Below are positions 1,139 through 6,694 of a stretch of DNA of 64,000 nt, piece after piece. The notes beneath the pieces were generated by a model. It ran no database searches. It was not told the DNA's origin and saw nothing but the letters and a program-made list of their open reading frames with translations. The first letter of the stretch is position 1. The number at the start of each line of letters is the position of its first letter. Source of the DNA: Candidatus Spongiisociaceae bacterium (GTDB taxonomy: Bacteria > Actinomycetota > Acidimicrobiia > Spongiisociales > Spongiisociaceae); assembly GCA_965202665.1 (NCBI GenBank), contig OZ241841.1, positions 1,536,001-1,600,000 on the forward strand, written 5' to 3'. The translations under genes and the position numbers were made by a program.

Positions 1139-2099
1139 GGGGCCGATACTGGAGGTGCGGGGCCTGTCCAAAACCTACCGGGTGCGGCGTTCGGTGGGCC
1201 GGGCGGAGTCGGTGCGGGCGGTGGAAGACGTTTCTTTTGCGGTGGACCGGGCCCGGATGGTGGGGATCGTGGGGGAAAGCGGCTCCGGTAAAACCACCGT
1301 GGCCCGTTGCCTGCTCGGTTTGACCGAACCCACCGGGGGGGAAATTTTGCTCAACGGGCAGCCGCTGACGGGACTTTCCATCCGGCGCATGCGGCCCCAC
1401 CGCCGCCATCTGCAGATGGTCTTCCAAATGCCCCATTCCTCGTTCGACCCCACCCACGCCGTTGGCAGCGCGGTGCGCCAGCCGTTGCGCCGCCTGCGCC
1501 CCGACCTGTCCCGGGCGGAGCAGGAGGAGCGGTTGCGCTACGTGCTGGGGGCGGTCGGTTTGGCCGAGGAGCTGTGGGGCCGGAAACCGGCCGCGTTGAG
1601 CGGGGGGCAGTTGCAACGGGCGGCCATCGCCCGCGCCTTGGCCCCCGACCCGGATCTGGTGGTGTTGGACGAACCGACTTCCTCGTTGGACCTGAGCGTG
1701 CGGGGCGAGATTTTGACCCTGTTGCAGGATTTGCGGCAGCGGCTGTTGGCGGCTTTCGTGTTCATCTCGCATGATTTGGAGGTGGTCCGGGCCTGCTCCG
1801 ATGACCTGATCGTTATGTATCTGGGCCAGATCGTGGAACAGGGCCCGGCTGACGAAGTGTTCGACGAGCCCCGTCACCCGTACACGCAGGCTCTGGTGGC
1901 GGCCAGCCGGTTCGCAACGGACGGGCCCGCGCTGGCCCCCAAAGGCGAGCACGACCCTTCCTCGGGTTGCCGCCTGTTCCCCCGCTGCCCTTTGGCCGAG
2001 CCCGACTGCGTCGCCGACCAGTCTTTGCTCCCCATAAGCGACCACCGCCAAGTCCGCTGCTGGAAAGCCCCCGCCCCCCAGTCGGTCACCGGACGCTGA
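1128..2099 (+). CDS. Oligopeptide/dipeptide ABC transporter ATP-binding protein (DppF/OppF-like)
   Basis: GESGSGKT, LSGGQLQR, DEPTSSLD, HPYT and the GCRLFPRC motif. Confidence 0.92.
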   Translation: MMGEGPILEVRGLSKTYRVRRSVGRAESVRAVEDVSFAVDRARMVGIVGESGSGKTTVARCLLGLTEPTGGEILLNGQPLTGLSIRRMRPHRRHLQMVFQMPHSSFDPTHAVGSAVRQPLRRLRPDLSRAEQEERLRYVLGAVGLAEELWGRKPAALSGGQLQRAAIARALAPDPDLVVLDEPTSSLDLSVRGEILTLLQDLRQRLLAAFVFISHDLEVVRACSDDLIVMYLGQIVEQGPADEVFDEPRHPYTQALVAASRFATDGPALAPKGEHDPSSGCRLFPRCPLAEPDCVADQSLLPISDHRQVRCWKAPAPQSVTGR

Positions 2100-2754
2100 G
2101 CATCCGCCCCAAGGTTTCCCGATCCAGGTCGATGATGCCATCCACCAGCTCCGACAACTCACGAGCTACGCTGCGCCGGTTAGGGGTGGCGGCCACCACA
2201 TGGGCGCCTAAATCTTGGGCGGTGCGCACCGCCTCCGCCAAGTCCCGGTCGCCCGAAACTAAAACTGCGGTATCGAACACTCCCTGTCCTGCTAACCGCA
2301 CCAGATCCAAGGCGATCAGCGTATCCACCCCCTTCTGCCTCCGCTCAGGCCGAAACTCCCAATGCCGTCGGAACTCGCTGGTTAGATGATCCGGCCCAAT
2401 CCCCAGTTCCTTCGCCGTTTTTCGGAGTGCTTTGAGCAATGGCTGATCAAAAGCCTGCCTGTTCTCAGAGATGTGGCCTAGTCTCAGTCGGATACCCGGG
2501 ATTTGTCCCACCTGAGCTAAAAACCCGCGTTGGTTTTTAGCCAACTTGTGCTCTATGTGGAACGTGGCATCGTACCAATAGGCGCGGACGAAGACGCCGC
2601 TGACCGGGTTGTCGCAGTCAGCTAAATTCCGACACCAATCGGCTATCGCCTCAGCGTCAAGACGAGTCTGGGAGATCCTTTTGTTCAGGGTCCCCGCTCC
2701 CGAGGCTCTCAAGAACCCCACATCAATGAGGACCGCATAGCCGGAAAAGTTCAT
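2086..2754 (-). CDS. NYN-domain (LabA/DUF88, PIN-like) ribonuclease
   Basis: LIDVGFL, RAYWYDA, QKGVDTLIALD and LVSGDRDL carry the acidic NYN catalytic motifs. RBS AAGGAG lies at 2771-2766. Alternative GTG start at 2766. Confidence 0.88.
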   Translation of the reverse strand: MNFSGYAVLIDVGFLRASGAGTLNKRISQTRLDAEAIADWCRNLADCDNPVSGVFVRAYWYDATFHIEHKLAKNQRGFLAQVGQIPGIRLRLGHISENRQAFDQPLLKALRKTAKELGIGPDHLTSEFRRHWEFRPERRQKGVDTLIALDLVRLAGQGVFDTAVLVSGDRDLAEAVRTAQDLGAHVVAATPNRRSVARELSELVDGIIDLDRETLGRMLSVR

Positions 2755-2771
2755 TTTTTCCGCCACTCCTT

Positions 2772-2803
2772 AAAAAAGGGGGACCCCTTCGTGAAGGGGT
2801 CCC
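2772..2803 (-). terminator. Intrinsic terminator directly before the NYN RBS
   Basis: On the - strand: GGGACCCCTTC-AC-GAAGGGGTCCC-CC-TTTTTT, followed by AAGGAG. Confidence 0.75.
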
Positions 2804-2964
2804 GGTTCACTTTTACGGCGGGGCCCGAAGGGAACCCGCCATTCCAAACGGGGAACCCTTTGAAAAGGGTTCCCCGTTTGTCTTTACAACGGGGGGGCTT
2901 TCCGCGGAAGCCCCCCCCAAAATGCACCCCCCAGGGGTGCGTACTAGCGCCGCTCAGGACGCCA
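2772..2964 (-). ncRNA. Candidate structured RNA (six-hairpin array), leader of the NYN gene, copy 1
   Basis: Consecutive stems at 2945-2964, 2924-2940, 2891-2918, 2845-2880 (16-bp perfect), 2817-2840 (cUUCGg loop on the - strand) and 2780-2803. Confidence 0.6.
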
Positions 2965-2970
2965 AGAGGT

Positions 2971-3000
2971 ATTATAAGCATCCCCTCCGCATCTTGTCAA
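2971..3000 (-). promoter_or_regulatory. Consensus sigma70 promoter driving the hairpin RNA and NYN gene
   Basis: TTGACA (3000-2995), 18-nt spacer, TATAAT (2976-2971). Confidence 0.75.
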
Positions 3001-3137
3001 ATGAGGATTGCCCCGGGCGGGATGAATGTTCCTAGCCGGGACCGATCGCGTTGCCGGGCCGGCTTTGTTCCTCGACGGACGCCCACTTGCCCCGTAGCGG
3101 ATACCAGACGGGTGGGTATCCAGGTAGGATGCTTTTG

Positions 3138-3350
3138 ATGATGGGTGATGCTGCAACTGCGGCTGATCGGTACGCCCCGAGCGATTGGGTGGACGATCCG
3201 GTCTCCGATGCCTACTTGGCGGAAGTCGCCGAGGCTTCCGAACGCGGCGAGTTCGCGGCCGAGATAGCCGACGCCGTCGAGCGACTGGAGGCCGCGTTGC
3301 CTGATGGCCGGCGGATCGTGGGCCCGCCTTGGCGCATAGTCGGGTCATAG
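3138..3350 (+). pseudogene. Small ORF, possibly the N-terminal remnant of a RelE/ParE-like toxin
   Basis: PVSDAYLAEV...AEIADAVERL...GPPW loosely resembles the N-terminus of RelE/gp49-like toxins. TAGGAT lies 7 nt upstream of the ATG. Confidence 0.3.
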
Positions 3351-3395
3351 GCTAAGCCGGGATAGGGTCCCCGCGAGCCCGCGGATATGCTGATT

Positions 3396-3497
3396 AAAGA
3401 GAAGGGACCCCTGGGTAAAGGGGTCCCTCTTACTTTACAACGGGGGGCCTTTTCCGCGGAAGGCCCCCCCAAAATGCACCCCCCAGGGGTGCGTTCA
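3396..3497 (-). ncRNA. Candidate structured RNA, copy 2 (three hairpins, no downstream ORF)
   Basis: Shares CTTTACAACGGGGGG...CCGCGGAAG...AAAATGCACCCCCCAGGGGTGCGT with copy 1. Ends in the stem AGGGACCCCT/AGGGGTCCCT (3403-3428) and a U-rich tail. Confidence 0.55.
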
Positions 3498-3503
3498 AGC
3501 CCC

Positions 3504-3531
3504 ATTATGCATCCCTTTCGCATTTTGTCAA
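3504..3531 (-). promoter_or_regulatory. Sigma70-like promoter of RNA copy 2
   Basis: TTGACA (3531-3526), 16-nt spacer, CATAAT (3509-3504). The spacer is homologous to that of the copy 1 promoter. Confidence 0.6.
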
Positions 3532-3749
3532 ACGTAGATTTACGCCCTTGCTCCTCCGTTCCGTTGTTTCCGCCGCGACGTTCCGGTTGGCGGTTGGCCG
3601 GCGAGAATGGGGGGTGGGGTTTTGAATTGGGCGGGGGCGGGTTAGGATGGGGGCATGCCGTGCGCGCCTAATGCCCGATGTCGAATGTCACCTGCCGGGG
3701 GTGGGTGAGTTGGACTATGGCGGGGGAATGATGGGCGCGGGAAAGGCAA

Positions 3750-4904
3750 ATGGGCGAAACCGTCGGGTCGGTCACGACCCAGTTTTACACTTTCGGGAGC
3801 GAAGAGGAACCGTTCGTATTTGAAAACGGCGGGTCGTTGCCCGAGGTCACTTTGGCCTACGAGGTTTACGGGGAGCTCAACTCCAAGCGGGACAACGCCA
3901 TCCTGCTTTTCCACGCCCTGACCGGCAGCCACCACGCCGCCGGCTACAACCCGTCCGTGCCGGGGGCGGGCGACCGTTGGACCGACGAGTTGCACACCGG
4001 CTGGTGGGACGAATTCATCGGCCCCGCCCGTTCGCTTAACACCGACAAGTTTGCGGTCATCTGCGTCAACTGGGTGGGGCACTGCTACGGTTCCACCGGC
4101 CCCGCCTCCCCCAACCCGGCCACCGGCCAACCGTACGGGTCCGCTTTCCCCCAAGTTTCGGTGGGCGACATCGTCCGCTCCCAGTTCCGCTTGCTGGACC
4201 ATCTGGGCGTGCAACGGCTGCATGCGGTGGTGGGGGCCAGCGTGGGGGGGATGATGTGCCTGGACGCGGCCGTCCGTTTCCCGGACCGGGTGCGTTTCAT
4301 CACTCCCATCGCGGCCGGACTGCGGGCCACCGACCTGCAGATCATCCACAACTTTGAGCAGATCAACGCCATTCGCAACGACCCGCACTGGAACGGCGGC
4401 GACTACTACCGGGGATCCCCGCCCGACGCCGGGTTGGCCCTGGCCCGGATGATCGGGCACAAAACTTTCGTGTCTTTGGATCAGATGCAGGCCCGGGCGC
4501 GGGCGGAAGTGGATGCGGACGAGGAACGGGTGCGCCTTCCCCTGGAAAGCTACATGTGGCACCAGGGGCAGAAGTTCGTGCTCCGTTTCGACGCCAACGC
4601 CTACCTGCGGGCCATGCTGGCTTGGCAGGACTTCGACCTGTACGCCGAGGCGGAACGCCGGGGAATGACCGTGCCGGAAATGCTGTCCGGCGGGGCCCAC
4701 CAGTATCTGGTGTTTTCCATCGACTCCGATGTCTGCTTCTATCACGAGGAGCAGGGGGAGATGGTGGAGGCCCTGAAGGCGGCGGCCCTTCCCCTCAACT
4801 GGATCACCGTCCACTCCGAAAACGGCCATGACGCGTTTCTGCTGGAACCGCACCTGTTCGAGCCGCATCTGCGCTACCACTTCGAGTCGGAGGGACTCTG
4901 CTGA
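3750..4904 (+). CDS. metX: Homoserine O-acetyltransferase
   Basis: HALTG, GASVGG nucleophile elbow, GHDAFLLE; adjacent to metY. Confidence 0.92.
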   Translation: MGETVGSVTTQFYTFGSEEEPFVFENGGSLPEVTLAYEVYGELNSKRDNAILLFHALTGSHHAAGYNPSVPGAGDRWTDELHTGWWDEFIGPARSLNTDKFAVICVNWVGHCYGSTGPASPNPATGQPYGSAFPQVSVGDIVRSQFRLLDHLGVQRLHAVVGASVGGMMCLDAAVRFPDRVRFITPIAAGLRATDLQIIHNFEQINAIRNDPHWNGGDYYRGSPPDAGLALARMIGHKTFVSLDQMQARARAEVDADEERVRLPLESYMWHQGQKFVLRFDANAYLRAMLAWQDFDLYAEAERRGMTVPEMLSGGAHQYLVFSIDSDVCFYHEEQGEMVEALKAAALPLNWITVHSENGHDAFLLEPHLFEPHLRYHFESEGLC

Positions 4905-6184
4905 TGGCGGAACGGGAATACGGGTTCGACACCCGCTCCATTCACGCCGGCCAACGTCCCGACCCGGAGTCGGGGGCGCGGGCCATGCCCATCTACCAGA
5001 CCACCTCCTATGTGTTCGAAGACCCGCAGCAGGCGGCCGACCTGTTCGCCTTGCAGAGTTTCGGTAACATTTACACCCGCATCGGCAACCCCACCACCGC
5101 CGCCTTCGAAGTGCGGATGGCTTCCCTGGAAGGCGGGCTGGGCGGTTTGGCGGCCGCTTCCGGGATGTCGGCCCAGCTGGTGGCCATCCTCACCGCCTGC
5201 GGGGCGGGCGACAACCTGATCGCCAACCGGGCCTTGTACGGGGGGACTTTCACCCAGTTGGATGTGACTTTGCGCCGCATGGGGATCACCGCCAAATTCG
5301 TAGACACCAACGACACGGACGCCATGGAGGCGGCCATCGACGACCGAACCCGGCTGGTCTACGGAGAGACGATCGGCAACCCGGGCGGGGACATTTTGGA
5401 CATCGCCGCCCTCTCCGAAACGGCCCATGCGCACGGGGTTCCCCTGTTCGTGGACAACACTTTCGCCACCCCCGCCCTGTGCCGCCCCATTGAGCACGGG
5501 GCGGATGTGGTGATTCATTCCGCCACCAAGTTCATCGGCGGACACGGGGCGGCCATCGCCGGGGCTTTGGTGGAAAACGGCCGGTTCCCATGGGACAGCG
5601 GCCGGTTCCCGGGCATCACCGAACCGTCCGCCGCCTATCACGGGCTCACCTTCTGGGAGAACTTCCGGGAATACGGCTACCTGATGAAAGCCCGTATGGA
5701 AACCATGCGGGACGTGGGGGCGGTCATCTCCCCTTTCAACTCTTTTCTGCTTCTGCTCGGTTTGGAAACGTTGACCCTGCGGATGGAAAAGCACGTAGCC
5801 AACGCGCAAGCGGTAGCCCGGTTTTTGGAGGACGACCGGCGGGTTTCCTGGGTTTCCTATCCGGGGCTGCCCTCCCACCCCCACTATGATCTGGCCGGCC
5901 GCTATCTGCCGGGAGGCCCGGGGGCGGTGTTCACTTTCGGCGCGGCGGGCGGATACGAGGCGGGGAGGTCGTTCATCCAACGGGCCGAGTTGGCCAGTCA
6001 TTTAGCCAACGTGGGGGACGCCAAAACTTTGATCATCCACCCGGCCAGCACCACCCATCAGCAGGTGCCGCCCGCCGAGCGGGAAGCGGCGGGGGTGGGG
6101 GACGACATGATCCGCATTTCGGTAGGCTTGGAGGACATCGACGACATTCTGTGGGATCTGGATCAAGCCTTGGGAGGAGGATGA
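4904..6184 (+). CDS. metY: O-acetylhomoserine aminocarboxypropyltransferase (sulfhydrylase)
   Basis: PIYQTTSY, YTRIGNPT, HSATKFIGGHG (PLP lysine), LANVGDAKTLIIHPASTTHQQ. Confidence 0.95.
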   Translation: MAEREYGFDTRSIHAGQRPDPESGARAMPIYQTTSYVFEDPQQAADLFALQSFGNIYTRIGNPTTAAFEVRMASLEGGLGGLAAASGMSAQLVAILTACGAGDNLIANRALYGGTFTQLDVTLRRMGITAKFVDTNDTDAMEAAIDDRTRLVYGETIGNPGGDILDIAALSETAHAHGVPLFVDNTFATPALCRPIEHGADVVIHSATKFIGGHGAAIAGALVENGRFPWDSGRFPGITEPSAAYHGLTFWENFREYGYLMKARMETMRDVGAVISPFNSFLLLLGLETLTLRMEKHVANAQAVARFLEDDRRVSWVSYPGLPSHPHYDLAGRYLPGGPGAVFTFGAAGGYEAGRSFIQRAELASHLANVGDAKTLIIHPASTTHQQVPPAEREAAGVGDDMIRISVGLEDIDDILWDLDQALGGG

Positions 6185-6694
6185 ATGAGCGCTGAAACTT
6201 TACATGAGAACGGGGGCGGCCCGGTACCGGAAGCCGACCCTAAAACCCGCCTGCGCCTTATTAGGGAGGCTCGTTCGGCGGCTCTGGTGGGGGTGTCCGG
6301 CAACGTGTTGCGTTCCTCCAACTTCGTGGCCGCCTATCTGGTGCGCACCCACCTGCGGATATATCCGGTGAACCCGATGTACGAGGAGGTGCTGGGGCTG
6401 AAATGCTATCCTTCCCTGGCCGACCTGCCGGAAGTTCCCGACATCGTGGATGTTTTCCGACGCCGGGAGGAGTTGTCGGGGGTGGTGGACCAGGCGATCG
6501 CCGTCGGAGCCAAGGCGGTGTGGTTCCAACTGGGCCTGCGGGACGATGCGGCGGCCCGCAAAGCCATGGACGCCGGGCTGGAAGTGGTGCAAAACCGTTG
6601 CCTGAAAATCGAGCACGCCCGTTTCTCAGGCCGGCTCAACCTGGCCGGGTTTGACACGGGCGTGGTGACCAGCCGCCGCCTGCGCGCCATATAG
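6185..6694 (+). CDS. CoA-binding protein (YccU-like)
   Basis: VGVSGN...YPVNP...PDIVDVFR...VWFQLG...NRCLKIEH. Confidence 0.88.
   Translation: MSAETLHENGGGPVPEADPKTRLRLIREARSAALVGVSGNVLRSSNFVAAYLVRTHLRIYPVNPMYEEVLGLKCYPSLADLPEVPDIVDVFRRREELSGVVDQAIAVGAKAVWFQLGLRDDAAARKAMDAGLEVVQNRCLKIEHARFSGRLNLAGFDTGVVTSRRLRAI

Follow-up and report, generated by a model that had tools for sequence, protein, structure and literature searches.

Toxin-binding RNA antitoxins have been described for nucleases of two folds, the MazF fold of ToxN and the HEPN fold of AbiF, the second of which has been linked to the origin of Cas13. NYN/DUF88 proteins form a very widespread and uncharacterised family of nucleases. 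Type III loci, as described by Blower et al. (PMC3401426), comprise a promoter, repeated RNA units, a terminator and a single RNase gene, and in ToxIN, CptIN and TenpIN the units are exact repeats that build pseudoknots of 31-60 nt, the RNA being expected in excess. In the AbiF system a small RNA with repeated stem-loops and a terminator is placed upstream of the RNase, a HEPN dimer, and this RNA (AbiFr or RCd22) neutralises AbiF in cis and in trans, the structure of the stems outweighing their sequence (bioRxiv 2025.04.15.648962; PMC12737573). The DUF3800-I to -XI, drum and skipping-rope RNAs are several unrelated terminator-ended structures that accompany a single protein domain, before or after its gene and in either orientation, with no established function for the DUF3800 RNAs; NYN, DUF88 and LabA are absent from the main text of that study (PMC5737381), and DUF3800 is RNase H-like (PMC10910872). 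The NYN candidate HEC-09 gave no phage defence in E. coli, and the part of that report at hand mentions no RNA partner (bioRxiv 2024.01.29.577857). A literature search, judged at the level of titles and abstract openings, found no NYN-associated RNA system, and an RNA antitoxin paired with a NYN nuclease would apparently be of an undescribed kind.

The window analysed here is a stretch of 64,000 nucleotides from the 2.77-Mb genome (G000) of a Candidatus Spongiisociaceae bacterium. In it a predicted NYN nuclease gene is preceded by a promoter-hairpin unit (copy 1), and a second copy of this unit (copy 2, 3531-3396, minus strand) lies 552 nt from the first. The features of the locus are the following.

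2070-3616: accessory islet of ~1.5 kb holding the NYN gene, both RNA units and a small ORF, absent from this site in the sister genome G001
2086-2754, minus strand: gene of the NYN/LabA-DUF88 (PIN-like) predicted RNase, 222 aa, ATG at 2754, Shine-Dalgarno sequence AAGGAG at 2771-2766
2772-2964, minus strand: copy 1 leader RNA, ~190 nt, five to six hairpins, fold z -5.7
2971-3000, minus strand: copy 1 promoter-like site TTGACA-18-TATAAT, 12/12 consensus
3138-3350, plus strand: small ORF of ~70 aa, situated between copies 1 and 2 and running towards copy 2, recognized from homologues, start codon inferred
3396-3497, minus strand: copy 2, predicted ~100-nt stand-alone small RNA, from fold, genome match and comparison of the copies
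3396-3429, minus strand: copy 2 terminator-like stem with T-rich tail, resembling the last stem of copy 1
3442-3469, minus strand: copy 2 hairpin H2, 10 bp, which includes the C:G pair 3463:3448, from fold and comparison of the copies
3476-3492, minus strand: copy 2 hairpin H1, 7 bp, 3-nt loop, sequence the same in both copies
3504-3531, minus strand: copy 2 promoter-like site TTGACA-16-CATAAT, 11/12 consensus, +1 predicted near 3497

The window protein matches Pfam NYN (PF01936) above the cut-off (7e-11), and its structure model (pLDDT 92) retrieves 2qip, 5yaa and 6fdl in Foldseek, resembling VPA0982 and the NYN domain of MARF1. The five acidic residues D15, D148, D154, D173 and D175 (numbered on the 226-aa ORF that starts at GTG 2766) are intact, and the closest homologues are 222 aa long; the named records among them are labelled Ca. 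Spongiisociaceae or Acidimicrobiia. The protein is a PIN-like NYN nuclease by prediction, with a conserved acidic active site, and has its fold and catalytic aspartates in common with HEC-09, LabA/DUF88, VPA0982 and MARF1. The HEC-09 model of PADLOC matches 51 of 51 aligned members of the family, weakly, with a hit of 5e-10.

The locus shares with ToxIN, CptIN and TenpIN promoter-like sites ahead of the RNA (12/12 and 11/12 consensus), a terminator palindrome that immediately precedes the putative toxin gene (a T6 run behind the stem 2803-2780, then the Shine-Dalgarno sequence and the ATG) and one RNase gene. The nuclease, however, is NYN/PIN-like by Pfam and structure, not a homologue of ToxN, CptN or TenpN with their MazF/Kid fold, and it is not HEPN, which separates it from AbiF despite the similar arrangement of RNA and gene. 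Because the toxin fold differs, the locus is not a member of ToxIN, CptIN, TenpIN or AbiF, although it would be type III-like in its working. The RNA differs as well. In contrast to the type III pseudoknots, the units are predicted to be plain hairpins with 3-4-nt loops, and a pseudoknot unit is unlikely given the 3-nt loops, the folding tools used predicting none by design. The hairpins of the window leader are dissimilar and contain no tandem repeat family, unlike the exact repeats of type III loci, and there are extra putative stand-alone RNA genes; the homologues carry 2-5 degenerate units, and a NYN paralogue in the genome G004 (E 2e-11 to the window protein) is preceded by 7.5 exact 54-nt repeats (L176:1037-1500). 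Each of these repeats contains two predicted hairpins, the GUU hairpin among them, and the whole array is followed by a terminator, a Shine-Dalgarno sequence and the NYN gene. L176 thereby has the classic arrangement by which Blower et al. define type III loci (PMC3401426), and no other locus offers as good a test case. Tandem arrays of ~28 nt and ~41 nt were also observed directly upstream of other NYN genes (L192 and L194, in G004 and G009), unrelated in sequence to the GUU hairpin. With the DUF3800 RNAs the units share the coupling to one domain and the freedom of placement, but the protein is NYN and the RNAs differ. Neither the abiF RNA motif RF03085 nor any other Rfam family reached the gathering score anywhere in the window, a search of the locus itself at E<=1 gave no match either, and at E<=1 the 28 loci searched gave unrelated or sub-threshold matches only. 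No Hma system was found beside the window NYN in the 12 kb read.

In the region 1900-3900 just two promoter-like sites occur, at 3531-3504 and 3000-2971, against 0.3 expected in shuffled sequences, and they are homologous (78% over 30 nt). The promoter of copy 2 may be weaker than optimal, to judge by its 16-nt spacer and the C at the first -10 position. Downstream, the predicted fold of copy 2 consists of the stems 3492-3476, 3469-3442 and 3429-3402 (z -3.9, equally stable shuffles 0/200). The core common to both copies comprises 62 nt with 95% identity (E 2e-19) and is found at these two places alone in the whole genome; the longest identical run, 31 nt, places 3464-3494 on 2912-2942, whereas the flanks have 43-51% identity, the random level being ~45%. 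Compared with copy 1, copy 2 is missing ~23 nt immediately behind the promoter, and of the five later stems two are absent. Hence, an earlier sequence-only reading, which had seen a repeated promoter and RNA core, an identical 24-mer (it sits inside the 31-nt run) and a second copy of three stems with a terminator-like end, agrees with the alignment and folding of both copies. The same reading held that no ORF follows copy 2 on its strand; a 134-codon ORF (3348-2944) is in fact present. It is without a Pfam match, however, and runs antisense to the plus-strand small ORF, which has homologues. The plus strand of copy 2 folds slightly better than the minus strand (-63.6 versus -58.1 kcal/mol), so the assignment of the strand rests on the promoter and the T-rich tail and not on energy. 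A joint of 3463 to 2912 in one low-depth sequencing run was rejected as an assembly artefact, as it spans exactly the 31-nt identical stretch. Antisense action of the type I kind was excluded by the longest perfect complement between the RNA and the NYN coding sequence, 8 nt, and by the location of the RNA on the strand of the gene.

The islet sits between an ABC ATPase gene and metX and is accessory, since G001 joins these two genes directly; the G001 orthologue of the NYN protein (62%) is encoded at another site, beside HTH-ImmA, DUF4411 and methylase genes. On the right of the islet (3750-6694, plus strand) there is an apparent operon of metX, metY and a CoA-binding protein gene, conserved in family f1; the first two genes are presumably metX and metY, from a Pfam hydrolase match and general knowledge. 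The product of the small ORF is acidic and has no Pfam match, and its homologues, found in 2/29 genomes and genus-specific, are placed at unrelated sites (G001 3101.7 kb, 69%; G000 2210.5 kb, 60%). Because these homologues sit away from NYN genes, the small ORF was ruled out as a protein antitoxin or fixed partner of the nuclease. In a diverged relative (runs X4 and X5), with 91 substitutions and 62 gap letters over 1900-3549, one contig spans both copies, and the depth table has ~1 gap letter per bin across copy 2.

The sequence-only reading also contained a G:C to C:G swap in the stem next to the identical core, from which it argued that the structure is under selection. The swap is real: the pair 3463 C:3448 G of copy 2 corresponds to 2911 G:2897 C of copy 1, and the three G001 copies carry C:G as copy 2 does. 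A single swap is insufficient as proof of a selected structure. Template-switch repair within an inverted repeat could likewise yield one compensatory change. Selection on the structure is supported by the background-level flanks, by two compensated pairs that H1 shows between the window copies and the G001 copies aligned to them (five genus copies, two in the window and three in G001, were compared by their folds) and by the leaders of the family. In 42 of 51 extracted leaders, aligned with MAFFT, 9 of 13 pairs change on both sides (0.354 versus 0.175; 0/500 shuffles), a pairing that is inflated, as these leaders were chosen for holding hairpins. The counts of GU against AC in the family stems, 30 versus 20, are too weak to fix the strand.

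The leaders were taken from 159 fetched loci, of which 104 passed the filters: no redundancy, an identity of 37% or more, an alignment beginning inside the first 30 residues, and 150 nt or more of upstream sequence. A scan of genome contigs with the single protein had given no match, and the homologues were found by an alignment-based search. In 57/104 loci the 170 nt upstream of the gene contain at least two short C-rich/G-rich hairpins, against 1/104 downstream and 1/104 far upstream, with a detector that scores the window locus itself 0. The commonest loop is GUU, 52/58 arrays include a hairpin with a T-run behind it, and under a stricter definition of the run 52/104 loci contain arrays of 2-5 units. 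In 37 of these 52 the first hairpin is immediately preceded by a -10-like hexamer (control window 9, opposite strand 3). The phyla with arrays are Chloroflexota, Spirochaetota, Acidobacteriota and Actinomycetota; in a quick tree the arrays reach the deepest branches and have been lost several times. Viral contigs contain no NYN relative and no exact family motif. There are 28 homologues, in at least four clades, that keep the five aspartates with fewer than two upstream hairpins. In one array-less clade (L006-L027, family f1), where gene context is mostly conserved, 12 of 22 proteins carry D15N, from one event. As for residues lost together with the RNA, position 67, missing from the window protein too, is a weak lead only.

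A covariance model (R1, the GUU-loop NYN leader family) built from the 42-leader alignment was searched in genome sets of 5, 5, 141 and 141, with 40-150 candidates scored per genome. All matches above 40 bits are directly upstream of NYN genes, including one locus outside the training set; a 25-bit match precedes a distant NYN gene, and the remaining weak matches fall on generic terminators or on the units that belong to another NYN subfamily. A general leader placed before many unrelated genes is unsupported by this distribution. The window copies are below significance with R1 (E 0.19 and 1.3 in 64 kb) and the three G001 copies score 10-12 bits each, so that the link to the family is one of position, protein phylogeny and likeness to G001; on these grounds the window copies would be a diverged genus-level form of the R1 leaders. 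H1 is the positional counterpart of the CCC-GUU-GGG hairpin of the family and would likely be the protein-binding unit.

The duplication of the unit is not peculiar to the window. G000 has four full-length NYN genes, and promoter-hairpin units are duplicated at 4/4.

Window NYN locus, minus strand: two units
762-767 kb (L165): three copies of the NYN 5' region, two of them with gene fragments only
1983.6-1984.0 kb (L002:1120-1480): two divergent promoter-hairpin-terminator units at a second NYN subfamily
1997.3-1998.2 kb (L200:1350-2150): two RNA units with 12/12 promoters, downstream of the NYN gene

At L165 a divergent promoter straddles the NYN start codon, its unit matching that of L196 in G001, and the locus may in addition have a promoter and leader in the direction of the gene. 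The NYN gene of L200 was missed by the Pfam search of the genome; single homologues are L199, L205 and L206. In G001 multiple units occur at 5/6 NYN loci, with three copies at the window orthologue and four divergent units before the same second subfamily (L186). Two further units in G001 (L173:936-1300) resemble those of L183, ~670 kb away, and lie downstream of a different NYN gene; they are candidate true orphans. Promoter-like sites with a local duplicate of the downstream 110 nt amount to 8/9 near NYN genes versus 15/193 elsewhere, in a comparison whose sites are paired and not independent. In the window, in G001 copies A and C and at the divergent loci the flanks are at or near the ~45% random level with hexamers and RNA retained, both of them even where the promoter spacer has diverged; one G001 locus is a recent block duplication that includes its flanks, and some G001 flanks have 68-95% identity. 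Different NYN genes have different, unrelated units, placed upstream, divergently or downstream according to the NYN subfamily. No doubled strong-promoter unit was found in 24 NYN loci of three other genera, three of which have upstream tandem arrays and two have repeats, and within the fetched flanks of the 104 loci a second copy is present at the window and its G001 orthologue only, the other 102 being without. In cultured bacteria, a plasmid of Azospirillum thermophilum (L237:900-1180) carries a pair of promoter-hairpin-terminator units, alike at 93% over 45 nt, in front of a distant NYN gene, and a plasmid of Sinorhizobium fredii NGR234 (L238) a single one.

Taking into account that the units have (i) their own promoter and terminator, (ii) a variable placement and (iii) a tendency to be multiplied, the simplest view of the RNA is that of a ligand that acts in trans and has to outnumber the protein. 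We propose, with a probability of roughly 0.55, that the RNA of copy 2 is an extra antitoxin, acting in trans to inhibit the predicted NYN RNase of a type III-like module. A stand-alone antitoxin or decoy RNA had been one of two origins offered from the sequence, and it is the best reading, strengthened by the architecture of the family and by the doubling at unrelated NYN genes. In the model, both units, each with its promoter consensus, hairpins and terminator-like end, would be transcribed, and at the proximal unit, which the nuclease gene follows, most transcripts would end at the terminator, as in ToxIN and AbiF, so that the RNA would exceed the nuclease mRNA. The nuclease would bind the short C-rich/G-rich hairpins and be kept inactive. 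Upon transcription shut-off by a phage or by stress, the labile RNA would be lost and the nuclease freed. The dose of RNA could be raised in other lineages by more hairpins per leader and in this genus by whole extra RNA genes, copy 2 being a booster that would damp or silence the nuclease. Several observations count against the antitoxin reading: the 28 array-less homologues with an intact site, where decay of the active site is seen in one array-less clade alone; the lack of whole-unit doubling at the 24 NYN loci of three other genera and, within the fetched flanks, at the other 102 homologous loci; the lack of phage defence by HEC-09; the G001 duplications that carry their flanks, as a neutral tandem duplication would; the non-optimal promoter of copy 2; and the R1 scores of the window copies. 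By extension, stand-alone NYN/DUF88 genes may for the most part encode the PIN-like toxins of RNA-antitoxin systems that have so far escaped recognition as a class, with subfamily-specific RNAs multiplied, as repeats or as extra RNA genes, to tune or disarm the nuclease, a proposal that we make tentatively and that could well prove too broad.

RNases that regulate themselves through their leaders are known, as for rne and pnp. The unit could also be thought of as a cis-acting attenuator or autoregulatory leader limiting NYN expression, copy 2 then being a by-product of duplication, a relic or the terminator of the small ORF. In the subfamily of the window the unit does lie directly 5' of the gene and on its strand, copy 1 contains stacked terminator-like stems, and the last stem of copy 2 (3429-3402) also scores as a plus-strand terminator after the small ORF. 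However, copy 2 retains a promoter, H1 and H2, which are superfluous for such a terminator, and no alternative antiterminator fold is evident in the MFE or centroid structures of copies 1 and 2. Moreover, in other NYN subfamilies the units, likewise duplicated, point away from the gene or lie downstream of it, an arrangement that a cis leader cannot explain. This explanation survives best among the alternatives and is nevertheless unlikely.

The second origin offered from the sequence, a module that lost its nuclease, leads to the explanation that copy 2 is a neutral, decaying and functionless leftover: the whole module would have been duplicated in tandem and the second nuclease gene deleted. 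Local direct-repeat clusters are numerous in the genome (137), extra copies with NYN gene fragments do occur at L165, copy 2 is shorter and has the weaker promoter, and one G001 copy carries mismatches in H1. Behind copy 2, on the other hand, sequence comparison detects no NYN remnant, which speaks against this origin, and a decaying leftover fits poorly with a core that is 95% identical between flanks at background level and with a doubling concentrated at NYN loci. The diverged relative, furthermore, keeps the region of copy 2, while its copy 1 misses ~25 letters around the post-promoter stretch, as copy 2 does. We regard a neutral leftover as quite improbable.

An RNA that does not inhibit the nuclease but serves a non-toxic regulatory RNase as cofactor, as trigger or as its preferred substrate, within a NYN ribonucleoprotein or as a sponge for another protein, would suit an RNA specific to NYN genes of which many intact members are without it. 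The lack of defence by HEC-09 (bioRxiv 2024.01.29.577857) and the DUF3800 RNAs, with the same coupling of gene and RNA and no established function (PMC5737381), point in that direction. Against it, the terminator between RNA and gene and the amplification of the repeats fit an inhibitor in excess, and the linkers between hairpins are near-constant inside an array, unlike guide spacers, which makes a cofactor role a poor candidate. Finally, a MITE- or REP-like mobile palindromic element inserted twice near the gene, suggested by the GC-rich near-perfect palindromes, is largely refuted by the copy number (two genome-wide and not many dispersed copies), by the unrelated units of different NYN genes, by the promoter consensus with which each unit begins and by a family motif that tracks the protein across phyla, and is scarcely tenable.

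If the antitoxin reading is true, a third nuclease fold would widen the class of RNA antitoxins, many orphan NYN/DUF88 genes would gain a testable function, and RNA gene dosage would be a means that symbionts have used repeatedly to keep selfish nuclease modules in check. The reading also provides a concrete hypothesis for the unexplained DUF3800-type pairs of RNA and gene. Since G000 alone holds four different NYN-RNA pairs, it permits a direct specificity matrix. Elsewhere in G000 (849.6-849.8 kb, L167), a 51-nt duplication with promoter-like sites lies upstream of a gene with a Fic domain.
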